Shown: positions 2,781 through 62,833, counted from the stretch's first letter. The stretch: DNA of 64,000 nucleotides from Fluviicola sp. (GCA_017983675.1 JAGOAZ010000003.1:34719-98718); one strand, 5' to 3'. Notes: generated by a model not told the origin, from the sequence alone. Translations and numbers: made by a program.

Positions 2781-4234
2781 TGCAAAAAACACTTTTTTTC
2801 GTCCTATCAGTATTCGTTTTTACTTATTCATTTGCTCAAGATTCTCTTTTGCAACGATTGAAAATGGACACTTCGTTCGCTTTTTTACAATATAAAAATC
2901 CAGCATTACTTGCATCCTTGCAACGCCAACTAAACAACTCCGATTCCGATAAATTTGTCATTTATCATTTTGGTGGAAGTCACATTCAAGCTGGTATGCC
3001 ACCGAATGTTGCACGAAAATACTTGCAAGATCGTTATGGTGATGGTGGACCGGGAATGATTTTCAGTTACAAGGCAGCAGACACGTATTCGTCGGTTAAC
3101 TACAAATCAACGAAAACTGGTAATTGGATTTTTGGCAAGAGTTTTCAAGGCAATCCAAAAGTTCCGCTAGGAGTTTGTGGAATGGGCGTTGAAACTACTT
3201 CAAAATCGGCTAGTTTGGGATTTCAGTTCAAACAAACGATAAGTAAAGCTGAATATTTTTTGAACGTTTTTGTTGAAAGTGACACGTTAAATCGCCCGTT
3301 TCAATTGAAAATAAACGACCAAGTTTATCTGCAAAGCCAATTACAAGAAATAGCACCTGGAAGTTGGCAATTGGCCTTTAGTGGTTCTATCGATTCCATT
3401 TCTGTTGCCATTCTTGCTGATTCAACCAATGCGAACAAACGTTTTCGTTTTTATGGCATCGATATTGAACGACAAGTAAATACGGGTGTAGTTTACCATT
3501 CTCTTGGTGTCGGTGCTGCTGCTTTTCGCTCTGTTTTGCAATTGGAAAAATTAACCGATCATTCAAAGGTATTGTTACCCGACATGGTTTTTTTAGATTT
3601 TGGCACCAATGACATTTTGTACACCAACGCGATTGATAAAAAATTACCAGCAACAGTCGAAAAAGCAATAGCTCAGTTCCGCGCAATAAATCCTAACATA
3701 CTGATTGTGTTGACAAGCACACAAGATTTATATAAAAATGGAAAGTACATCACAGCGGGTGTTGAATTTGTCCAGCTAATGGATTCATTGGCTCAGAAAA
3801 ACGATTGCTTCTTTTGGAATTGGTACGATTTAGCTGGAGGTTATGGAACCATCAATACATGGAAACAAGAAAAATACGCAAAACCTGATGGAATACATTT
3901 AACTGCGGATGGGTATGCTGTCAAAGGAGAATGGTTGTTTCGTTCGTTTCAAAATTCCCTTCAATTTGGGCAAGCCTATCCAGATGCTTCGTGTTTGATA
4001 CCAATGAAAGGATTTCCTTTGAAAGCAGCAATTGACTCATTACAAGTTCCAGTTGTCCAACCTATTCAACGTTCTCCAGAAGTTGAACGCCAACGCTATT
4101 ATACGGTTAGATCGGGCGACACCTTGGGCGAAATTGCGCAGAAACATGGTGTTTCAGTTAGCGCACTCAAACGCGCGAATGGATTGCGTTCTGATGTGTT
4201 GCAAATTGGCAAACGCTTAAAAATACCGAAATAA
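2777..4234 (+). CDS. SGNH/GDSL hydrolase or acetyltransferase with C-terminal LysM domain
   Basis: Signal peptide; FGGSHIQAG (block I), GTND (block III), DGIH (block V); C-terminal [29 protein letters not shown] LysM; 4-nt overlap with the upstream gene. Confidence 0.85.
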
Positions 4235-6804: not shown

Positions 6805-7749
6805 ATGAAGAAAATATTGGTACTTGGCTCTTGTGGTCAAATTGGAACAGAGTTGGTGTTAACCCTACGCACAAAATTCGGAAACCAACAAGTTGTTGCA
6901 GCTGATTTAAAAGATGAATGCCCAACAAACCTTGCAAATGGACCTTACGTTCGGTTGGATGCCTTGGACAAAGATGCCGTAAGAAATTATATTATTGCTG
7001 AAAAATTTGACGATGTCTATTTATTAGCAGCTTTGTTATCTGCAACTGCTGAAAAAAATCCTGAGTTTGCCTGGAAATTAAACATGGAGGGCTTGTTTAC
7101 CATTCTTGATTTAGCAAAAGAAGGTCACATTGAAAAGATTTTCTGGCCCTCATCCATTGCCGTTTTTGGACCAACAACTCCACGAGACAATACGCCACAA
7201 TACACAGTTATGGAACCGTCTACAGTTTACGGTATTTCCAAACAAGCGGGAGAACGTTGGTGTGAATATTATTTCAATAAGTTCAATGTCGATGTACGAA
7301 GCATTCGCTACCCAGGATTAATTTCTTACAAAAGTTTGCCAGGTGGAGGAACGACCGATTATGCCGTCGATATTTTCTACAAAGCAAAGGCGGGAGAACC
7401 GTTTACATGTTTCCTAAAAGAAGATACTGCACTTCCTATGATGTTCATGGATGATGCCATTCGTGCAACAATAGAATTAATGGAGGCGCCAAGTGAACAA
7501 ATTAAGATTCGCTCGAGTTATAATTTATCGGCACTATCATTCACACCAAAAACATTGTCTGAAGGAATTAAAAACAGCTTGCCAGATTTTCAAATTAGTT
7601 ATGCACCAGATTACCGACAAGCAATTGCCGATTCATGGCCAGCATCGATTGATGATAGCGCTGCTCGATCAGATTGGGGATGGAAAGAAGAATTTGACCT
7701 AAAAGCCATGATTTACGTAATGTTGGAAAATCTACCGACACCCCATTAA
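6805..7749 (+). CDS. NAD-dependent epimerase/dehydratase family; likely SDR-type L-threonine 3-dehydrogenase
   Basis: GSCGQIG Rossmann motif, YGISK (YxxxK), PGGGTTDYAVDIF, RQAIADSWP motifs typical of Flavobacterial ThrDH. Confidence 0.82.
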   Translation: MKKILVLGSCGQIGTELVLTLRTKFGNQQVVAADLKDECPTNLANGPYVRLDALDKDAVRNYIIAEKFDDVYLLAALLSATAEKNPEFAWKLNMEGLFTILDLAKEGHIEKIFWPSSIAVFGPTTPRDNTPQYTVMEPSTVYGISKQAGERWCEYYFNKFNVDVRSIRYPGLISYKSLPGGGTTDYAVDIFYKAKAGEPFTCFLKEDTALPMMFMDDAIRATIELMEAPSEQIKIRSSYNLSALSFTPKTLSEGIKNSLPDFQISYAPDYRQAIADSWPASIDDSAARSDWGWKEEFDLKAMIYVMLENLPTPH

Positions 7750-48963: not shown

Positions 48964-49160
48964 CACCTTTATCACTGAATCACAATTAAAACTTCTAGCA
49001 ACAACCAAAAATAATTGTATATTTAGCTTAACCAATTACCGAGTTATTGCAACACTCACAACCAAACACTCCTACGATTCGAATTTTTCTTGGTACAAAG
49101 ACTGTTCATCCAACTAAAACATTTGGACGAAACAGGAATTGAATTGCTTGTTGTGATTCA
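48964..49160 (+). repeat. Promoter/leader repeat, copy A (5' part only)
   Basis: 48976-49160 aligns to 50611-50794 with about 7 differences in 185 nt; contains TATATTTA at 49018. Confidence 0.92.
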
Positions 49161-50591: not shown

Positions 50592-50985
50592 TTTCAATCA
50601 CCTTTTAAACTGAATCACAATTAAAACTTCTAGCAACAACCAAAAATAATTGTATATTTAGCTTAACCAATTACCGAGTTATTGCAATACTCACAACCCA
50701 ACACACGTACGATTCGATTTTTCTTGGTACAAAGACTGTTTATCCAACTAAAACATTTGGCCGAAACAGGAATTGAATTGCTTGTTGTGATTCAATTTTA
50801 GATTTATAAAGGAAGTGTTGGAACAGCTCAACTTAATAAAGACGCAAAAGATCTGTTTTTAAGAGCTGTTTGATTGCGCGTCTTTGTTTCTCGTTAGCAC
50901 GATGCGAATTACAAAGGTAGTTGTCTTTTCGTGCTGGAGGATCCGAAAAACGAGTATGAGTAGGGAAAATTTAAATATTCTACAA
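50592..50985 (+). repeat. Promoter/leader repeat, copy B (precedes precursor 1)
   Basis: Shares its 5' 185 nt with copy A and the 3' structured block (aaagac...gagtatgagtaggg, 50838-50965) with copies C and D. Confidence 0.9.
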
Positions 50986-51219
50986 ATGGCAAAAAAGAAA
51001 GAAAACTTACGAGAAAAATTTTCTAAAAATCAGATTGAATTAAGAAAAGTGTTTGGTGGAAGACGAAATAGTGAGCCATCATATTCTGAATGTGCAGGTA
51101 CAGGTTGTTCCATTATAACTAGTCAATCTGAATCTGGTATAATAATTAGAGATTGGGAAGATATTGAATGTGGTGATGATATGTATATGGGGGATGTAAT
51201 ATGTGCCCCAGTTGCCTAA
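50986..51219 (+). CDS. RiPP precursor peptide 1 (77 aa, double-glycine leader)
   Basis: MAKKKENLREKFSKNQIELRKVFGG|RRNSEPSYSECAGTGCSIITSQSESGIIIRDWEDIECGDD...; Lys-rich leader, GG site, Ser/Thr- then Asp/Glu-rich core with 4 Cys. Confidence 0.75.
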   Translation: MAKKKENLREKFSKNQIELRKVFGGRRNSEPSYSECAGTGCSIITSQSESGIIIRDWEDIECGDDMYMGDVICAPVA

Positions 51220-51239
51220 ACAAATTTATTTTATAAAAG

Positions 51240-51265
51240 ATGCAGCAATCAGAAGATTGTCGCAT
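51240..51265 (+). terminator. Hairpin after precursor 1
   Basis: atgc-a-gcaatc-agaa-gattgt-c-gcat imperfect stem; no U-tract. Confidence 0.4.
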
Positions 51266-51287
51266 TGAAAATCCTTAAAGAATTATT

Positions 51288-52175
51288 ATGAAGAATCTAA
51301 TATTTTTTTTGTTTTTGGTTTGCCTTCAAAATATTGCAAGAACACAGGTGTATCAGCACTTTATAACTTTTAAACATCCAGATATGGTTGAAATTCAATT
51401 TTATGCAGAAAAAGCTATTGATTTTTACTATTTAGAAAAGTATGATAGTTCAATTGTTTATAACTATAAAGTGAATAGTGTTCTTCCAGAATACTGGCAA
51501 TCATATTATAACTCGGCAGTTTGTTTTGCAAAGAAAAATCAAAAAGATAGTTGTTTTAAGTACCTAACAAAATATGTAACGTTAGCAAAAGAAAAGGTTA
51601 ATCTTGGTTATTTAAAGAATGAAAATTTAAATGTTTTGAGTCATGATTCGTTAAGTAAATTACAAAGTCTAGCTAAGTCAAATTTAGTATTAGATATCAC
51701 GAAAAATTATGATTTAATCAGCAATCTTGAATTATTAGATGGAAAAGAACAGGAAATACTAGGAAATGGATTTGGAAGAGATCGTAAAAAAGATTCATTG
51801 TTACTAAATAATTTCATTAAATTCTGTTCAATTATTGACACAAACAATTTCCCTTCAACAAGTGAAATAGGCATAGCAACAGGAGCAATACACAGATTGA
51901 TATTACACCTTGATTATGCACCAAATATGCAGTTTAGTTTAGGAAAAAAACTGTTAAAGCAACATAAAAAAGGATACAATAAAAAAGGAAGTGCTTACAT
52001 CATAGATCGATCTTTAAAAAATTTAGGAAAGCCTCAATTATATGGAACAATTTTAGAAAACAATACAAATTCTTTGTATGTGGTAGATGATATGAAAAAA
52101 GTAATTAAAAGAAGAAAAAAACTAAAATTTCAGCGTATTGAGGACTATTTACAAAATAAAAGCATTACCAAATGA
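51288..52175 (+). CDS. Exported TPR + DUF6624-like protein
   Basis: Signal peptide; YYNSAVCFA TPR-like helix; AYIIDRSLKNLGKPQLYGT resembles the DUF6624 C-terminal signature. Confidence 0.65.
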   Translation: MKNLIFFLFLVCLQNIARTQVYQHFITFKHPDMVEIQFYAEKAIDFYYLEKYDSSIVYNYKVNSVLPEYWQSYYNSAVCFAKKNQKDSCFKYLTKYVTLAKEKVNLGYLKNENLNVLSHDSLSKLQSLAKSNLVLDITKNYDLISNLELLDGKEQEILGNGFGRDRKKDSLLLNNFIKFCSIIDTNNFPSTSEIGIATGAIHRLILHLDYAPNMQFSLGKKLLKQHKKGYNKKGSAYIIDRSLKNLGKPQLYGTILENNTNSLYVVDDMKKVIKRRKKLKFQRIEDYLQNKSITK

Positions 52176-52240
52176 CCCTGATATTATCCAATCCATTTGT
52201 TCAAGTTTCTATGAATGAGGTGATTGAATGGTTGTGTTTT
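52172..52240 (+). pseudogene. 5' stub of an ATP-grasp maturase gene
   Basis: An ATGA-coupled ORF reads MTLILSNPFVQVSMNEVIEWL, matching MILILSSYMDASTNVVIDWL of the intact gene at 53929, then runs into repeat copy C and stops. Confidence 0.65.
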
Positions 52241-52672
52241 CAATCACCTTATAAACTGAACCACAAGTTAAAACTACTTGCAACAGCGAAAAATAATTAA
52301 AAAAATCATCAAGATAATTTGGATTTTAGAAAATTAGTTGTATATTTAGTTTAACAATTTACCGAGTTATTGCGACTCCACAACCAAACACACTTACGAC
52401 TCTTTTTTTTGATATCCCCATTGTTCATTATTTGTTAATGATCAATTATTGATTGAAATAATCTCACATTTAGTGAAGTTATCATAAAAAAAATAAGAGC
52501 TTGCTGCAACAAGCCCTTACCCAAAGACACAGGATCTGATGATTGCAGTCCTCTTTGAATGTGCGTCTTTGTTTCTCGCTTGCACGAAGCGATTCACAAA
52601 GATAGTTAATTACTTCGTGCTGGCGGTAACCGAAAAGCGAGTATGAGTAGGGAAGATTTAAACTAAATTTTT
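52238..52672 (+). repeat. Promoter/leader repeat, copy C (precedes precursor 2)
   Basis: The first ~60 nt resemble copy B; 52310-52672 closely matches copy D; promoter TTTG(52318)-19 nt-TATATTTA(52341). Confidence 0.92.
52486..52592 (-). ncRNA. Predicted cis-antisense small RNA (~105 nt) within leader C
   Basis: Minus-strand TATCTTTG at 52597-52604 and a minus-strand terminator gggcttg-ttgcag-caagctc-ttatttttttt ending near 52486; inferred only, no expression data. Confidence 0.45.
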
Positions 52673-52888
52673 ATGAAAAAAAAATCATTAAAAAAGTTGT
52701 CTGAATCATTGATGAAACAACAACTAAACTCAAAATCAATGGGAAATGTATTCGCGGGTGCGGATGGAACATGTGGAACGATCGTATCGACTGACACAAA
52801 ATCAGGAACAAAACTAACATCTGATGATTGTGATTACGATAACGATTGTACTCCAATTGTAGTCCCAGATACAACAATTGTTGTGTAA
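52673..52888 (+). CDS. RiPP precursor peptide 2 (grasp-with-SPASM substrate candidate)
   Basis: MKKKSLKKLSESLMKQQLNSKSMGNVFAG|ADGTCGTIVSTDTKSGTKLTSDDCDYDNDC...; Thr/Ser/Lys followed by an Asp-rich core, upstream of the ATP-grasp gene. Confidence 0.82.
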   Translation: MKKKSLKKLSESLMKQQLNSKSMGNVFAGADGTCGTIVSTDTKSGTKLTSDDCDYDNDCTPIVVPDTTIVV

Positions 52889-52907
52889 TTTTTTATAATA
52901 TAATAAT

Positions 52908-52943
52908 TAGAGTGTGTGAATAATTATATGTTCACACACTCTA
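52908..52943 (+). terminator. Perfect 13-bp hairpin after precursor 2
   Basis: tagagtgtgtgaa-taattatatg-ttcacacactcta. Confidence 0.65.
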
Positions 52944-52963
52944 TTCTTCCAATTTGATCAAAC

Positions 52964-53932
52964 ATGATAAATATTGTCAAACTATTTATTTTTATTCCTT
53001 TTTTCACTTTCACACAGTTTAATGAAAATGAATTAATGAAGTATATTGATACTAAAATTATCATTGATTCGCTTGCAAATGAAAATAAAGTAAATAAAAA
53101 GCAACTATTACACTATTATTCCTCTATTGAGAATAATATCTTATTTAGCAGAAAAGATTATCTTAATCAAGCTGTTGTATATTTAGATGAAAAAGAGTAC
53201 AAAAATGCTGAAAAATCGTTGGAACAGTGTTTGAAATATCAACCTCGACTATTTAATTTAAGTGATTCTTTACAAATAAGAAATAGTGCCTTTTATAAAA
53301 AATTTGAACCGAATGGATTATTAGACAGATTAATGGATAGTCTGATATCAAATACAAAAGAGTATTCATCCTACCGATCTCATTCGGATACTTCAATTCA
53401 TGTTTTTTATGAAACACTTTATCAGCATGATCAATTCATGCGAAGCAATGATGTCCAGATAAAATCTCTCATTTCTTTAAAATATTGGGAAATAGTTGAA
53501 AGCGATCTTTTTAAAATGCAAAATAAGTTTGATAGTATTAATCGTATAGAACTTCAAAATTTTACTAATGATCTAAAGAATATTGATTTTTATCATTTAG
53601 ATGAAAGCGACAAATATACTTTATTTTTGGTGGGCCAACACAGTGATTTTGATCTTGATTTTCAAAAAAGAATACTGGATATTTTTTTTAATAATTATCA
53701 TACCGGATCCATCAAACTTGAAAATCTAGTATATCTCATTGATCGTTATTTACTAAATACAAAAGGATATCAATTATTTGGTTCTCAGTTTGAATTTTTT
53801 GATAAAAAAATAGTATCAAAAAATTTACTTTATCCTATTTCTAAAGTTAACCAAATGCGAAAAATAGCCAGTCTACCCTCGCTAGAATCTTACCTTATTG
53901 ATGCAGATAACCTAATCGACGAAAAAAAATGA
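52964..53932 (+). CDS. DUF6624-like exported protein with TPR-like segment
   Basis: LYQHDQFMRS, LVGQHSD, VYLIDRYLLNTKGYQLFGSQF match the DUF6624 pattern (DQxxR...QH.D...YL.DR...Q.YG.Q). Confidence 0.7.
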   Translation: MINIVKLFIFIPFFTFTQFNENELMKYIDTKIIIDSLANENKVNKKQLLHYYSSIENNILFSRKDYLNQAVVYLDEKEYKNAEKSLEQCLKYQPRLFNLSDSLQIRNSAFYKKFEPNGLLDRLMDSLISNTKEYSSYRSHSDTSIHVFYETLYQHDQFMRSNDVQIKSLISLKYWEIVESDLFKMQNKFDSINRIELQNFTNDLKNIDFYHLDESDKYTLFLVGQHSDFDLDFQKRILDIFFNNYHTGSIKLENLVYLIDRYLLNTKGYQLFGSQFEFFDKKIVSKNLLYPISKVNQMRKIASLPSLESYLIDADNLIDEKK

Positions 53933-54930
53933 TATTGATATTATCTTCCTATATGGATGCTTCTACTAATGTAGTTATTGACTGGTTAAAAGCATTAGGT
54001 CATCAATATATACGAATCAACGCATTTGATGAATTGTCCAATAATATTAATTCCTTAAATATTACAAACGAAAATTCTGATGTGATAATTGAGAGTATGG
54101 GTATTACATTTAATCTGAAAGATATTCATGTAATATGGTACCGTCGTTCTGATATGGAGCATGATTCCTTGATACCAGTAACGACACCGTTTTCTTCATT
54201 AAAAATGGAAATTAATCATTTTTTGATCGAAGAATTTCGTGAATTTAGATCCAGTTTTTACAGTATTTTACGGAATAAATATTGGTTGGGACATCCTAAA
54301 TTAAGTCATGTAAATAAAATACTTCAATTGGAAATTGCCCGAGAAGTTGGTCTAAAAATTCCAGAAACGATCATCACCACAAAAAAGCAGGAATTATATA
54401 ATTTTCTTACACTTCACACGAAAATTATTTGTAAACCAGTAAAACATATTAAGCATTTTGATATTGAAGATAAAATGTTAACAGTTTATACAATAGGAAT
54501 AAACGCTGATGATATTTCAAAATTACCAGATAAATTACCACCTTCGATTATTCAAAAAAACATTGAAAAATCGATCGAATTACGTATTTTTTATCTTGAT
54601 GGAAAATGTTATTCAATGGGTATTGATTCTCAAAAAATGGAAAGTTCAGTTATCGATTTCAGAAATCTGGATGATAACGAAATAACGCGACGTTTTCCAA
54701 TTAAAATCAGTTCATCACTAGAAAAAAAAATAGATCTTTTGATGAAAAAATTAAACCTTAACACTGGGTCTCTGGATATAATAATTTCTAAGGATGATGA
54801 AGCTTATTTTCTTGAGGTAAACCCAGTGGGACAATTTGGAATGATATCACATCCCTGTGGATACAATCTAGAGAAAAAAATTGCAGAATTTTTAGTTGAA
54901 AAAGATAAACAATATGAGCAAAAAAATTGA
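53929..54930 (+). CDS. gwsG: Grasp-with-SPASM system ATP-grasp peptide maturase (graspetide synthetase)
   Basis: MILILS...VIDWL, VIWYRR, NKILQLEIAREVGLKIPETII, ICKP, QKNIEKSIELRIFYL, IDFR, FLEVNPVGQFGMIS. Confidence 0.88.
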   Translation: MILILSSYMDASTNVVIDWLKALGHQYIRINAFDELSNNINSLNITNENSDVIIESMGITFNLKDIHVIWYRRSDMEHDSLIPVTTPFSSLKMEINHFLIEEFREFRSSFYSILRNKYWLGHPKLSHVNKILQLEIAREVGLKIPETIITTKKQELYNFLTLHTKIICKPVKHIKHFDIEDKMLTVYTIGINADDISKLPDKLPPSIIQKNIEKSIELRIFYLDGKCYSMGIDSQKMESSVIDFRNLDDNEITRRFPIKISSSLEKKIDLLMKKLNLNTGSLDIIISKDDEAYFLEVNPVGQFGMISHPCGYNLEKKIAEFLVEKDKQYEQKN

Positions 54931-55132
54931 CGAAATAATTGATGATTTAAGTATGCATAAATTACCACTTAATGTACTTTTTGGAGAAATTAAAGAAAAA
55001 AAGATGAGGTATATTCCAGTTTCTAATTTTGGAAATAACGGCGGTAAGATTATTGCTGAAAATTTTTATAAACCTTTATCAAACTTAACTTTTGATTATG
55101 AAAGATTTAAAGAAATGGAGTCTATATCCTAA
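54914..55132 (+). CDS. Small hypothetical protein (72 aa) between the two maturases
   Basis: MSKKIDEIIDDL...; overlaps both neighbours on the same strand. Confidence 0.55.
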   Translation: MSKKIDEIIDDLSMHKLPLNVLFGEIKEKKMRYIPVSNFGNNGGKIIAENFYKPLSNLTFDYERFKEMESIS

Positions 55133-56201
55133 CTGCATTATTGTACAAGGATACTCTAATAGCATTGTTCTGGATATTTACAGACAACGGATGTTTCGTT
55201 TTGATTCAGAATTAGTACCTTGTTTTGAAGATTTAGATTTATTGCAAGTGCTAGAAACAAAGGCTTTGTTAGAAAATTCTATCATAAAAAGATTAGTTGA
55301 ATTAGATTACCTTACAAGCTCTTCAAGTCACTTTGAATCGACAAACAGTTTTACTGAATACGAATCACCTTTTCCAGTTGATTGTTGGATTGTTGAATTA
55401 AAAGGTGAAGATTCACTGATTTCAAATTTATTAGTGACTTATTTACAGAAAGTAGGTGCGATAGCAATACAATTAATCTTTTCCGAATCCTCCATTGATA
55501 CGATCAAGAAAAACCTGCTGTATATAAAACAAACCAATGTAGATTATGTTGAAGTTGTTGTAAAAGAAGGAAAGAAGTATGAGGCTGATTTTGAGAATAT
55601 TTTTAAGTTAGATGATCGGGTTAGGTTGATTTTTTCTGAAGATCAAGCTTATCTTAATAGAAAAGTAGAATTTGTTAAAAAACAAAACTTCAGTGGTTGG
55701 GTTATTCGACAAAATTCTGCGAGCAATATTTCAGATAAATCTTTCGACATTAATGAAATAGTGTACCTTGAATCTCTGAATCATCATCCATTTTATAACA
55801 AAAGATTTTTTTTGGATGCATCTGGTTTTTTTATGTCCTATCAAGATAGTAGACAGACATTGTTTAACATTAATAGTATGAAATCTATTTCAGATATACA
55901 AGATGTTGTACAGGATATAGATATGATAAAATTCTGGGATGTTAGCACAAAAAAAATTGAAGTTTGTATGGATTGTGAATTTAGAAATTGCTGTATTACC
56001 GATAAAATACCGATGAATAGGAATGGTGATAATTGGTATTATTATGAAGAATGCAACTACAACCCATATATTGCAAAATGGGAAGGAGAAGATGGTTACT
56101 TAACCTTAGCTGAATGTGGCGTAATATCAAATGAAAATGAGTTTTCAATTGACCACGAAAACATCGCATTAATTAATAAAGAGTTGTGGGGAGATGAGTA
56201 A
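55092..56201 (+). CDS. gwsS: Grasp-with-SPASM system SPASM-domain peptide maturase
   Basis: N-terminal NCIIVQGYSNSIVLDIYR; C-terminal IEVCMDCEFRNCCITD...CNYNPY SPASM cysteines; no CxxxCxxC radical-SAM motif visible. Confidence 0.85.
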   Translation: MIMKDLKKWSLYPNCIIVQGYSNSIVLDIYRQRMFRFDSELVPCFEDLDLLQVLETKALLENSIIKRLVELDYLTSSSSHFESTNSFTEYESPFPVDCWIVELKGEDSLISNLLVTYLQKVGAIAIQLIFSESSIDTIKKNLLYIKQTNVDYVEVVVKEGKKYEADFENIFKLDDRVRLIFSEDQAYLNRKVEFVKKQNFSGWVIRQNSASNISDKSFDINEIVYLESLNHHPFYNKRFFLDASGFFMSYQDSRQTLFNINSMKSISDIQDVVQDIDMIKFWDVSTKKIEVCMDCEFRNCCITDKIPMNRNGDNWYYYEECNYNPYIAKWEGEDGYLTLAECGVISNENEFSIDHENIALINKELWGDE

Positions 56202-56302
56202 ATTCTATTTCTACCAACAAACATACATTATTGTTGGTCCAAAGTCTTATTATTGATGATTAATTAAAAGTTTATTTGCATATAAATGCGAAATTAAATT
56301 AC

Positions 56303-56665
56303 AAGATAACTTGTCATTTAAAAAATTAATTGTATATTCGATTAACCATTTACCGATTTATTGCAATACAAACATCCAAACACACGTACGACTCTTTTTT
56401 TTTGATATGCCCATTGCTCATTATTTGCTAATGAACAATTTTTTATTTCAATAATCTCACATTTGGTGAAGTTATCATAAAAAAAATAAGAGCTTGCTGC
56501 AACAAGCCCTTACCCAAAGACACAGGATCTGAAGATTGCAGTCCTATTTGAATGTGCGTCTTTGTTTCTCGCTTGCACGAAGCGATTTTCAAAGATAGTT
56601 ATTTTTTCGTGCTGGCGATTCCGAAAAGCGAGTATGAGTAGGGAAAATTTAAACTAAAATTTAGT
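56303..56665 (+). repeat. Promoter/leader repeat, copy D (precedes precursor 3)
   Basis: Closely matches 52310-52672; promoter TTG(56311)-19 nt-TATATTCG(56333). Confidence 0.92.
56479..56585 (-). ncRNA. Predicted cis-antisense small RNA within leader D
   Basis: Minus-strand TATCTTTG at 56590-56597 and the same terminator hairpin plus T-tract ending near 56479; inferred only. Confidence 0.45.
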
Positions 56666-56869
56666 ATGAAAAATTCAAAAATGAGTTTGGAGGCTTTCAA
56701 AGCTAAAGCTGAAAACCAAAATGTAGAAATTGCAATGGATAATATTCAAGGCGGAAATTTGTTTAATTGTCATGGAGAATCCGGACAAGCTGGAAAGAAA
56801 ATAGGCAGATGGATTACTGATAGAGTTGACAATTGGTTAAATGGGCCAAATGGACCACAGTTACCATAA
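56666..56869 (+). CDS. RiPP/bacteriocin-like precursor peptide 3 (double-glycine leader)
   Basis: MKNSKMSLEAFKAKAENQNVEIAMDNIQGG|NLFNCHGESGQAGKKIGRWITDRVDNWLNGPNGPQLP. Confidence 0.8.
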   Translation: MKNSKMSLEAFKAKAENQNVEIAMDNIQGGNLFNCHGESGQAGKKIGRWITDRVDNWLNGPNGPQLP

Positions 56870-60643: not shown

Positions 60644-62833
60644 ATGAAAAAATTCCCATTCTACAAACAACCTGACGCAATGGATTGCGGCCCAACCTGC
60701 CTTCGCATGGTCGCTAAGTACCATGGCCGATCTATTTCCTTGCAAAAACTGCGCTTCAACTCAGAAACAACGAGAGCTGGCAGTAGTCTAAAAGGCATCA
60801 GCGAGGCGGCGGAAAACATCGGGTTTCGGACTTTGGGTGTTAAGGTAGATTTTATCAATTTGACAGAAAATGCACCTTTACCTTGTATAGTTTTTTGGAA
60901 TGAAAAGCATTTCGTTGTTGTTTATAAAATTAAAAAAGACAAAATATATATTTCAGACCCAGCACATGGTTTATTGGTCTACTCCAAACAAGAATTTATA
61001 GATAACTGGATAGGATCAACAGCCAATGAATTAACCCAAGAAGGGATAGCTTTGCTATTAGAACCGACACCCAAACTCAAGGAGACAGAAGAAGACGATA
61101 AAGCACCAAAAGAAGGTTTTTCTTTTCTGTTTTCGTATGTGAAAGGTCACCGAAAATTGATGGTACAGTTGGGGCTTGGTTTATTGGTAGTTAGTATCTT
61201 ACAACTTATTTTTCCATTCTTGACCCAAAGTGTGGTCGACATCGGTATCCAAAACAAAGACATGAGTTTTTTGTATTTGGTACTCGTTGGGCAATTATTT
61301 GTTTTTTTGGGTAGAACGTTTGTAGAAATTATTCGGGGTTGGATATTGCTTCACATGAGCGCACGTATCAATATTGCTCTGGTTTCCGATTTTCTCATTA
61401 AACTGATGAAATTGCCTTTGTCTTTCTTCGACATAAAAATGACAGGCGATATTTTGCAACGCATACAAGACCATCAACGTATTGAGAATCTTTTGACCAG
61501 TCAATCGCTCAATGTGTTGTTTTCGGCAATCAATTTTATTGTTTTCGGTATCGTTTTGTCCATATACAACATTCCAGTTTTTTTGGTCTTTTTAGCTGGA
61601 ACAGTTCTTTACTTTGTCTGGGTTAGTTTTTTCTTGAAAAAGCGAAAAGATTTAGATCACAAACGCTTCTTCCAAATGCGAGATGAGCAATCCAAAGTAT
61701 TGGAATTGATAGCGGGCATGCAAGAGATAAAACTACACAATGCTGAACGAAGCAAACGTTGGAATTGGGAACATATCCAAGTCAAATTGTTCAAGATTCA
61801 ACTTTCTAGCTTGCGCTTGGAACAATTGCAGACCAATGGCGCCAATTTCATCAACGAATTAAAAAACATCATTATCAGTTTTTTAACCGCTAAATTGGTT
61901 ATCGAAGGTCAATTAACCTTAGGAATGATGCTTTCAGTTTCCTATATCATTGGACAGTTAAATGCTCCTATTGCTCAATTTTTAGGATTCATTTACTCTT
62001 TGCAAGACGCAAAAATATCGTTGGAACGATTAGCAGAAATTCATAACAAAGAAGACGAAGAACCGATGCCAGAAAATTTAGCACATGAATTACCTGAAAA
62101 TAAGACGCTTACATTAGATCGTGTAAGTTTTCGGTACACAGGGTCTGCATCCAACGTACTAGAAAATATTTCATTGACCATTCCAGAAAACAAAATAACG
62201 GCTATTGTTGGAGCAAGTGGGAGCGGAAAAACTACTTTAATGAAACTATTACTCCGTTTTTATGAACCTACAGAAGGAAAATTAAAAATCGGCGAAAGTG
62301 AATTGAACAGCATTCGTCAATATACGTGGCGTGCGCATTGTGGCTCTGTCATGCAAGATGGCTTTTTGTTCAGCGATACTATTGCAAATAATATTGCTGT
62401 TGCAGATGAATATATAGATAAAACAAAACTAAAGAAAGCAGCACACATTGCTAATATTCGAGATTTTGTGGATAGTTTACCACTCAATTTCAATACAAAG
62501 ATTGGCTCAGACGGAATGGGAATAAGTGGAGGTCAAAAACAGCGGATTTTGATAGCACGTGCAGTGTATAAAACCCCTGATTTTTTATTTTTTGATGAAG
62601 CAACGAGTGCTTTAGATGCCAACAACGAAAAAGTAATTATGGAGAATTTGAATGACTTTTTTCAAGGAAGAACAGCTGTTGTGATTGCTCATCGATTAAG
62701 TACTGTAAAAAATGCGGATCAAATTATTGTGTTGGATCATGGAAAAATTATTGAACAAGGCACGCATATTGAGTTAATTGAGTTGAAAGGTAGTTATTTT
62801 CATTTGGTAAAGAATCAGTTGGAGTTGAATTAA
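60644..62833 (+). CDS. Peptidase C39-containing ABC transporter (PCAT, leader-cleaving exporter)
   Basis: QPDAMDCGPTCL (catalytic Cys), WNEKHFVV (His), SDPA (Asp); TM domain; GASGSGKTT, ISGGQKQR, FFDEATSALD. Confidence 0.96.
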   Translation: MKKFPFYKQPDAMDCGPTCLRMVAKYHGRSISLQKLRFNSETTRAGSSLKGISEAAENIGFRTLGVKVDFINLTENAPLPCIVFWNEKHFVVVYKIKKDKIYISDPAHGLLVYSKQEFIDNWIGSTANELTQEGIALLLEPTPKLKETEEDDKAPKEGFSFLFSYVKGHRKLMVQLGLGLLVVSILQLIFPFLTQSVVDIGIQNKDMSFLYLVLVGQLFVFLGRTFVEIIRGWILLHMSARINIALVSDFLIKLMKLPLSFFDIKMTGDILQRIQDHQRIENLLTSQSLNVLFSAINFIVFGIVLSIYNIPVFLVFLAGTVLYFVWVSFFLKKRKDLDHKRFFQMRDEQSKVLELIAGMQEIKLHNAERSKRWNWEHIQVKLFKIQLSSLRLEQLQTNGANFINELKNIIISFLTAKLVIEGQLTLGMMLSVSYIIGQLNAPIAQFLGFIYSLQDAKISLERLAEIHNKEDEEPMPENLAHELPENKTLTLDRVSFRYTGSASNVLENISLTIPENKITAIVGASGSGKTTLMKLLLRFYEPTEGKLKIGESELNSIRQYTWRAHCGSVMQDGFLFSDTIANNIAVADEYIDKTKLKKAAHIANIRDFVDSLPLNFNTKIGSDGMGISGGQKQRILIARAVYKTPDFLFFDEATSALDANNEKVIMENLNDFFQGRTAVVIAHRLSTVKNADQIIVLDHGKIIEQGTHIELIELKGSYFHLVKNQLELN

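Follow-up and report, generated by a model that had tools for sequence, protein, structure and literature searches.

A DUF805b-like leader element with a likely antisense partner before modified-peptide precursor genes of Fluviicola

Leader motifs of the DUF805 and DUF805b families are among the commonest in Bacteroidota, which largely lack Shine-Dalgarno-based initiation of translation. Both reportedly emerged from the comparative screen of Weinberg et al. in 2017, and to our knowledge the function of neither has ever been tested. Cis-antisense small RNAs (sRNAs) of the DonS type, for their part, oppose the 5' regions of polysaccharide-utilisation loci in Bacteroides. In Rfam, DUF805 and DUF805b are both typed as 'Cis-reg'; the main text of the comparative-screen paper (PMC5737381) does not discuss them, and literature searches on DUF805 and on grasp-with-spasm systems yielded nothing about the RNA. 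Here, we describe a conserved, folded leader element of ~170 nt that precedes each of three precursor genes, B, C, and D, in an island for ribosomally synthesized and post-translationally modified peptides (RiPPs) of Fluviicola sp. The island belongs to a 64,000-nt stretch (GCA_017983675.1 JAGOAZ010000003.1:34719-98718), the whole of which is called the window below and whose positions are counted from its first letter.

The reading that we prefer, at about an even chance, is that the 3' block of these leaders holds two overlapping RNA elements, namely a sense module of the DUF805 type and a likely cis-antisense sRNA of ~105 nt. The elaboration, the antisense unit, and the association with RiPP genes are new at the level of a variant, and the core is a known motif. 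As originally predicted, a conserved, structured, non-coding element stands before every precursor: several helices covary, and nucleotide identity of the leader across four genomes is 55-76%, while the ATP-grasp enzymes of relatives are only 38% and 33% identical to that of the window, so that constraint on the leader is evidently stronger than on the genes next to it. No protein is encoded by the block, whose frame is broken in copy C, which is frameshifted relative to B and D, and carries a stop codon in one relative (L022); a protein-coding or upstream open reading frame (ORF) explanation was ruled out on these grounds.

Carriers and the start-proximal module

In the scans made, the expanded ~170-nt form is confined to six copies in four Fluviicola/Crocinitomicaceae genomes. 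Besides the three copies of the window, it occurs once each in a metagenome-assembled genome (MAG) of Fluviicola sp. (L021, the same stretch as L049), in a Crocinitomicaceae MAG (L020, the same stretch as L051; copy at L020 1470-1639 / L051 700-868), and in a complete genome of the same genus (L022). A covariance model, R1, built from the three window copies and the three relatives scores these six at 140-196 bits and canonical DUF805b loci at no more than 30 bits. When 185,579 species genomes and the JGI metagenomes were scanned for the pattern, no further expanded copies turned up: the genome scan returned only the two relatives already known and one chance match (L050), and the metagenome scan returned one canonical DUF805b upstream of a lipoprotein gene. 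No extra copy of the 3' block, or of a 65-nt promoter-proximal block described below, was found elsewhere in the genome's own 2.85-Mb assembly, and none of the other weak BLAST loci there has DUF805b. At every copy, the operon order is leader, GG-leader precursor, DUF6624-like protein, and grasp-with-spasm ATP-grasp enzyme. Among the nearest ATP-grasp homologues (40-44% identity), L053, L057, and L060 are without such a leader. The remaining one, in a distant grasp-with-spasm cluster (L054, GCA_031553195.1), has canonical DUF805b near threshold, at 34.3 and 28 bits; these copies (3611-3643 and 7610-7642) immediately precede ORFs of 88 aa and 112 aa, respectively, the latter followed by a radical-SAM gene.

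The ~35 nt that precede each precursor (CGGnAACCGAAAAGC…AUGAGUAGGG, ending 21-23 nt 5' of the ATG) resemble DUF805 and DUF805b of clan CL00115. Copy C aligns end to end to the DUF805b model (RF02914) at 15.7 bits and remains below the gathering score of 35.6 because its local stem is degenerate, with two of four stem pairs mismatched. Copy B matches in the tail only (DUF805, 12.4 bits), copy D was not reported in an 8.2-kb Rfam scan that covered it, and a scan of the whole window at the gathering threshold gave no hits. At E <= 10, the window matches besides DUF805b are at chance level, namely BTnc231 (minus strand, 20.7 bits, E 0.99), RAGATH-33, and mir-785. By Rfam's own criterion, the window copies are not DUF805b members, yet their core, tail, position, and host clearly place them in the same kind. 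The original prediction had found no named match, which does not hold for this part of the leader: it is a sub-threshold relative of DUF805/DUF805b, an outcome that the prediction itself had set as removing novelty.

The likeness to both families consists of a conserved core, GG(n)AnCCGAAAAGC, a tail that reads (A)UGAGUAGG, a place 11-28 nt 5' of the start codon and in gene orientation, a Bacteroidota host, and one copy per gene in multi-gene arrays. The conserved 12-nt loop of DUF805b, GGAAgCCGAAAA, is present in C (GGUAACCGAAAA), D (GAUUCCGAAAA), and B (GGAUCCGAAAA), and the 3' tail UAUGAGUAGG, which agrees with the DUF805b model consensus, is invariant in all six expanded copies. The window copies differ from DUF805b in the closing stem (3-4 bp): only two of the four model pairs are standard in C and fewer in B, although the helix table gives three of four pairs in C, D, L021, and L022 and two of four in B and L020. 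In the window, the 3' strand of this core stem pairs instead with a distal CUCGC, forming helix P1. As in DUF805 (RF03081), a hairpin stands 5' of the core, but here it is P2, much larger and unrelated in sequence, with a 23-30 nt loop in place of the GUGG...CCAC hairpin and a UGG linker in place of an A-rich one, and the DUF805 model aligns to the tail only. The window form further differs from both families in having ~100 nt more of conserved structure upstream and in being tied to grasp-with-spasm RiPP precursors in one small lineage. A small GG..CC helix, predicted as P3, turned out to be the conserved DUF805 core itself; GGAUCC in copy B would leave a 2-nt loop.

Canonical members of the motif show what kind of signal the core represents. 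With copy C as BLAST query, 36 of 400 family genomes gave hits, nearly all restricted to query positions ~107-153, and the loci so found reach 74.4 and 70.6 bits for DUF805 (RF03081) and up to 43.7 bits for DUF805b (RF02914). They have GGCGGnAACCGAAAAGC-N(4-12)-GAGUAGGGAAA in common, with the ATG 11-28 nt later (a range given by 27 other copies), and many of the proteins downstream of canonical loci have signal peptides or lipoboxes. The canonical stem covaries as GGC/GCC, CGC/GCG, AGC/GCU, and UGC/GCA, that is, through all four Watson-Crick types, and the spacing between core and tail varies from 4 to 12 nt, which argues for an RNA rather than a promoter. A promoter for an extracytoplasmic function (ECF) sigma factor or for sigma-54 was ruled out by the variable spacing, a missing AAC, and the stem covariation. 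In L031, L045, L028, L035, and L025, canonical DUF805b copies stand two or three in a row, one per gene of small arrays, an arrangement like that of the window's island. A short ORF begins at the AUG of AUGAGUAGG and reads MSREDLN* in C (52643-52666, AUG at 52643-52645) and MSRENLN* in D (56634-56657); in copy B (50956-50985) and L020, it is in frame with the precursor and would add 9-10 N-terminal residues, and in L022 the stop codon of the short ORF overlaps the precursor ATG. A leader peptide as the basis of the motif was ruled out, given that this AUG is not conserved in canonical members (AGAGUAGG, ACGAGUAGG).

Helices across genomes

Support for the helices comes from five independent lineages, which gives low statistical power. 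The model used in fitting the alignment contained Pa, P0, P1, and P2; K1 and Px were not part of it. The covariation figures are accordingly to be taken as indicative, not as proof. When the model is revised to consist of Pa, K1, inner P0, Px, and P2, pairing extends to 96% of cells, and 12 of the 29 pairs have changed on both sides; none of 500 shuffles attains these values, and slid controls show 31-48% pairing. The helices originally proposed have 90% of cells paired, with five pairs changed on both sides.

P2, which had been predicted, is a strongly supported helix and covaries across genomes. One of its positions is G:C, A:U, U:A, and C:G in four lineages, three pairs (positions 3, 4, and 5) are changed on both sides in L021, and pairing is 100% over the first four pairs and 92% over the next two. 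P1 keeps its compensation within the window (CUCGC/GCGAG vs CUCGU/ACGAG) but does not extend to relatives: overall, 73% of cells are paired, L020 and L022 have three of five pairs, and the three of five in L021 are scattered and non-contiguous, two of them G-U, and form no helix. The compensation claimed for P0 is real in its inner part (CACA/UGUG vs CGCA/UGCG) and holds across genomes, where CGCU/AGCG also occurs and all cells pair, whereas the outer AAAGA/UCUUU never covaries and competes for the same strand with the better supported helix Px.

The element also proved longer than proposed, its true start lying ~30 nt farther 5', at a new hairpin, Pa, which covaries (CUUG/CAAG, GAUG/CAUC, and GGUA/UACC). 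The Pa loop CUGCAA is complementary to UUGCAG inside P0, and this kissing contact, K1, was found by unbiased helix enumeration in four lineages, with 97% of cells paired; in L020, it reads CGGUAA/UUACCG, amounting to two double changes. The changed Pa loop of L020, CGGUAAC, is also complementary to the DUF805 core GUUACCG, and a third contact, between Pa loop and core, is possible in that genome. Px is likewise new and extends hairpin Ph. It changes from U:A to A:U in L021 and L022 and from G:C to A:U in L021, two pairs being changed on both sides. Ph, which caps Px and corresponds to the alternative local pairing of the original prediction, covaries as CUGCAU/AUGCAG in L022 and UUCCA/UGGAA in L021.

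That local hairpin had been proposed to exclude P1 and P2. The hairpin exists and covaries, but exclusion would not apply to every copy, given that P1 is not conserved beyond the window and that the position of the P2 5' arm differs among copies. In C, D, and B, this arm overlaps the loop and 3' arm of Ph; in L021 and L022, it lies wholly within the Ph loop, which would allow both helices to form at once, as a pseudoknot. The fold preferred by RNAfold is Px+Ph for C, D, L020, and L022 and P2 for B, and a switch between the folds is possible. Px/Ph was also considered as the terminator of an attenuator and rejected: the U-rich tract begins 5-6 nt after an A/U-rich stem base, and the P2 3' arm lies downstream and hence could not serve as an antiterminator.

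Minus-strand signals and a putative antisense sRNA

The upstream ~105 nt are most likely a cis-antisense sRNA gene, which would be present in C, D, and the three relatives and lost in B. On the minus strand, a perfect Bacteroidota -7 box lies inside the P2 loop of copy C, and TAnCTTT(G/A) occurs at the same place in all six copies (CAAAGnUA on the plus strand). The three minus-strand hairpins 3' of this box correspond, in reverse complement, to Ph, P0, and Pa. The last of them resembles an intrinsic terminator, with a stem of 9-14 bp across copies (13-14 bp in C) and a U-run of eight in C and D and of seven in L022. A terminator scan calls the minus-strand Pa site in C, D, L020, and L021, and in L022 it was recognised by eye. 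Promoter and terminator signals thus bracket ~100 nt, except in copy B, and no minus-strand gene lies nearby that the terminator could serve.

The two strands also differ in folding. Over ~110 nt of copy C, the minus strand reaches -35.5 kcal/mol (z -3.4; none of 200 shuffles as stable) vs -25.6 kcal/mol (z -1.6) for the plus strand; the corresponding values are -35.5 vs -25.3 kcal/mol in D and -38.5 vs -25.4 in L022, an advantage of ~10-13 kcal/mol in these three. Minus-strand z ranges from -3.4 to -3.8 in C, D, L021, and L022, with 0/200 shuffles as stable in each. In three lineages, the extended Pa stem has an A-C mismatch on the plus strand that becomes a G-U pair when the minus strand is read. 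Px and P2 are sense helices, since the P2 3' arm is situated upstream of the putative antisense promoter and both have plus-strand G-U pairs, which in Px are found on that strand only. The original view of the 3' block as one element is only partly tenable: for about half of it (Pa, P0, and Ph), a minus-strand gene for an antisense sRNA is at least as good an explanation.

The likeness of the putative unit to DonS-type sRNAs lies in a -7-box promoter, a short RNA antisense to an operon 5' region, an intrinsic terminator, and presumed repression in cis. Here, however, the putative promoter occupies the loop of a hairpin that belongs to a structured sense leader, the presumed target is the leader of a RiPP precursor rather than a susC-type gene, and the sequences are unrelated (Rfam is negative on both strands).

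The following scheme can be proposed. The sense module comprises the last ~70 nt, i.e., P2, the short UGG linker, the core, and the tail, an architecture shared with DUF805 and DUF805b; its short local stem has decayed, and a lineage-specific P2 and, in this genome, the long-range P1 stand in for it. By analogy with DUF805, it may act in cis, affecting either the initiation of translation or how stable the precursor mRNA is. Complementarity to the leader would be complete from Pa to the P2 5' arm, so that pairing of the putative antisense RNA, or convergent transcription, could prevent P2 from forming, alter the DUF805 module, and lower precursor expression; Px+Ph, which involves the sense strand only, would compete with P2 likewise. 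What the sequences show is the conservation, the covariation, the fold asymmetry between the strands, the sequence signals, and the tie to RiPP operons; the production of either RNA, the direction of regulation, and any switch are inferred. In its strongest form, the proposal describes a composite sense/antisense riboregulator, in which the sense RNA controls precursor translation and its folding is set by an antisense RNA with a promoter in the leader loop. In this form, because identity to the other leaders is 70-94%, the antisense RNA of one cassette could also coordinate all precursors of the island; it is offered tentatively and seems to us unlikely.

Several observations weigh against the two-element reading. 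The output step is an analogy with DUF805/DUF805b, and the window copies miss the Rfam gathering score, B matching in its tail only and D being unreported in one scan that covered it. Copy B has no Pa, no antisense terminator, and no fold asymmetry, yet it retains the rest of the element. In L020, the antisense fold is not significant (z -1.2) and the asymmetry is weak, and in L021 the minus-strand box reads TAACTTTA. The putative antisense promoter has no -33 TTTG element, and conservation of its -7 box could stem from a sense helix alone, since the box coincides with the Px 3' arm. The low power from five lineages and the fitting of the alignment to a model with Pa, P0, P1, and P2 count on the same side.

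The locus offers a natural experiment, with three paralogous leaders in one island, each before an easily assayed small gene, and with a copy B that contrasts with C and D in having lost the antisense unit and favouring the P2 fold. If sense/antisense coupling is true, it would constitute a new control of precursor dosage for RiPPs of the graspetide type and provide a concrete system for the role of the core. A true composite riboregulator would provide the first functional handle on the widespread DUF805/DUF805b. If the coupling is not real, the leaders would represent another copy of a known motif with lineage-specific decoration.

Competing explanations and genomic setting

A possible, if rather unlikely, alternative is a single riboswitch-like sense RNA of ~170 nt, in which an aptamer (Pa, K1, P0, and Px/Ph) toggles between Px/Ph and P1/P2 and so gates the DUF805 core, the minus-strand signals being by-products. 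P2 and the competing Ph/Px both covary, a kissing loop with a compensatory change is a typical trait of folded aptamers, the energies of the two states are similar (RNAfold gives Px+Ph in four copies and P2 in B), and the Px 3' arm accounts for the conserved CAAAGnUA without an antisense promoter. The leader is also similar to kissing-loop riboswitches in its ~170 nt, covarying loop-loop contact, overlapping helices, and location in a 5' untranslated region. However, P1 is conserved in the window only, P2 and Ph are not exclusive in L021 and L022, and the sense front domain folds no better than shuffles (z -0.7, +0.8, and -0.8 in L022, L020, and B), whereas the minus strand does fold better. 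The A-run before Pa, a U-run on the minus strand, recurs in four lineages with no role in a sense aptamer, and copy B is entirely without Pa. No ligand is suggested by the gene context, no Rfam riboswitch matches, neither a terminator nor a helix sequestering the start codon is present, and part of the supposed aptamer is better explained by the opposite strand. The leader element does not appear to be a new riboswitch class.

It is improbable that the signal resides in DNA, whether as a promoter for an alternative sigma factor, as an operator palindrome, or as a junction for recombination or cassettes that is reused in precursor shuffling. In favour of such a reading, the repeats delimit cassettes in the island, and a strict TAnnTTTG is found within 150 nt upstream of canonical DUF805b in only 3 of 28 cases; against it, the stems covary with all four Watson-Crick types and have G-U pairs on one strand only, the supposed -35 'AAC' is missing in B, D, and several canonical members, and the spacings (4-12 nt from core to GAGUAGG, 23 to ~30 nt between the P2 arms) are unlike those of a -35/-10 promoter or a dimer operator. 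The least credible explanation, to which we give hardly any weight, is that the block has no function and that B, C, and D are similar through recent duplication of promoter and leader along with the precursor cassettes. Such an origin would suit C and D, with identities of 94% across the element and 93% across 209 nt, but it is contradicted by the cross-genome data: the element is single-copy in three other genomes whose adjoining enzymes have diverged to 33-38% identity, and substitutions are concentrated in compensatory pairs.

Table 1. Features of the leader elements and of the RiPP island (window positions; arrows run 5' to 3' on the minus strand; -7 and -7-like boxes are calls from sequence)
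Feature	Copy	Position	Strand	Remark
Leader element	B	50806..50976	+	R1 covariance model, 163.6 bits
Leader element (reference copy)	C	52492..52663	+	R1 covariance model, 195.5 bits
Leader element	D	56485..56654	+	R1 covariance model, 189.4 bits
DUF805b-like core and tail	C	52620..52653	+	CUGGCGGUAACCGAAAAGCGAGUAUGAGUAGGGA; GAGUAGG tail 52645-52651
GAGUAGG tail	B	50958-50964	+	
GAGUAGG tail	D	56636-56642	+	
Hairpin Pa	C	52499..52514	+	GCUUG-CUGCAA-CAAGC
Kissing contact K1	C	52504..52548	+	52504-52509 with 52543-52548
Inner P0 helix	C	52528-52531 with 52560-52563	+	CACA with UGUG; small hairpin enclosed
Helix Px	C	52565-52572 with 52596-52603	+	GUCUUUGU/ACAAAGAU
Hairpin Ph	C	52576-52581 with 52587-52592	+	
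Helix P2	C	52582-52589 with 52613-52620	+	GCACGAAG with CUUCGUGC; strong support
Helix P2	B	50897-50902 with 50929-50934	+	
Helix P2	D	56575-56580 with 56607-56612	+	
Helix P1	B	50890-50894 with 50950-50954	+	
Helix P1	D	56568-56572 with 56628-56632	+	
-7 box, perfect	C	52597..52604	-	TATCTTTG
-7 box	B	50919->50912	-	TACCTTTG
-7 box	D	56597->56590	-	
Putative antisense sRNA (~105 nt)	C	52483..52591	-	three hairpins, the last terminator-like, with U-run
Putative antisense sRNA	D	56476-56584	-	equivalent of copy C
Terminator-like hairpin	C	52522->52491	-	eight U at 52490->52483
Terminator-like hairpin	D	56515->56484	-	
-7-like box, sense	A	49018-49025	+	
-7-like box, sense	B	50653..50660	+	TATATTTA
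-7-like box, sense	C	52341-52348	+	
-7-like box, sense	D	56333-56340	+	TATATTCG
65-nt promoter-proximal block	A	49023-49087	+	60-92% identity among A-D
65-nt promoter-proximal block	B	50658-50722	+	
65-nt promoter-proximal block	C	52345-52409	+	
65-nt promoter-proximal block	D	56337-56401	+	
Precursor	B	50986-51219	+	77 aa
Precursor	C	52673-52888	+	71 aa
Precursor	D	56666-56869	+	67 aa
Grasp-with-spasm ATP-grasp maturase		53929-54930	+	TIGR04192, 272 bits
SPASM partner protein		55092-56201	+	TIGR04193, 73 bits
C39-peptidase ABC exporter		60644-62833		Pfam C39 and ABC domains

The RiPP island starts after crcB and occupies 48.9-64 kb of the window (Table 1). Its maturase block (53929-56201, plus strand) has a small ORF between the ATP-grasp gene and the SPASM gene, and DUF6624/TPR-like proteins are also encoded in the island. 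A promoter-like box with a leader is repeated four times (A-D); the 3' block is found in B, C, and D only, and repeat A, which is without it, leads directly into a 452-aa ORF. The precursor start codons of B, C, and D lie 21-23 nt 3' of GAGUAGG. At the end of cassette B, a 42-aa ORF (52172-52300; MTLILSNPFVQVSMNEVIEWL...) resembles the N-terminus of the ATP-grasp maturase and stops where repeat C starts.

Leaders are long in all carriers compared. The original prediction held their length to be fixed, and distances of 326 (B), 325 (C), and 326 (D) nt, measured to the ATG from where the -7 box ends, were reproduced in the window, where, because C and D are nearly identical, only two of these lengths are independent. 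The claim does not generalise to relatives, in which the candidate distances are ~272 nt (L020) and ~336 nt (L022). The middle part of B is indeed unlike C and D, and resembles A. Directly 3' of the sense -7-like box, all four repeats, A included, have the 65-nt block in common, with a 10-bp palindrome, TATTGCAATA, inside copies B and D. This block is not recognisable in the leaders of relatives; an operator and a 5' RNA element are both candidate roles for it. On a different contig of the same genome, a sub-threshold match to the ribosomal protein L20 leader (RF00558) occurs at L006 1172-1279, with 33.8 bits against a gathering score of 58.7.

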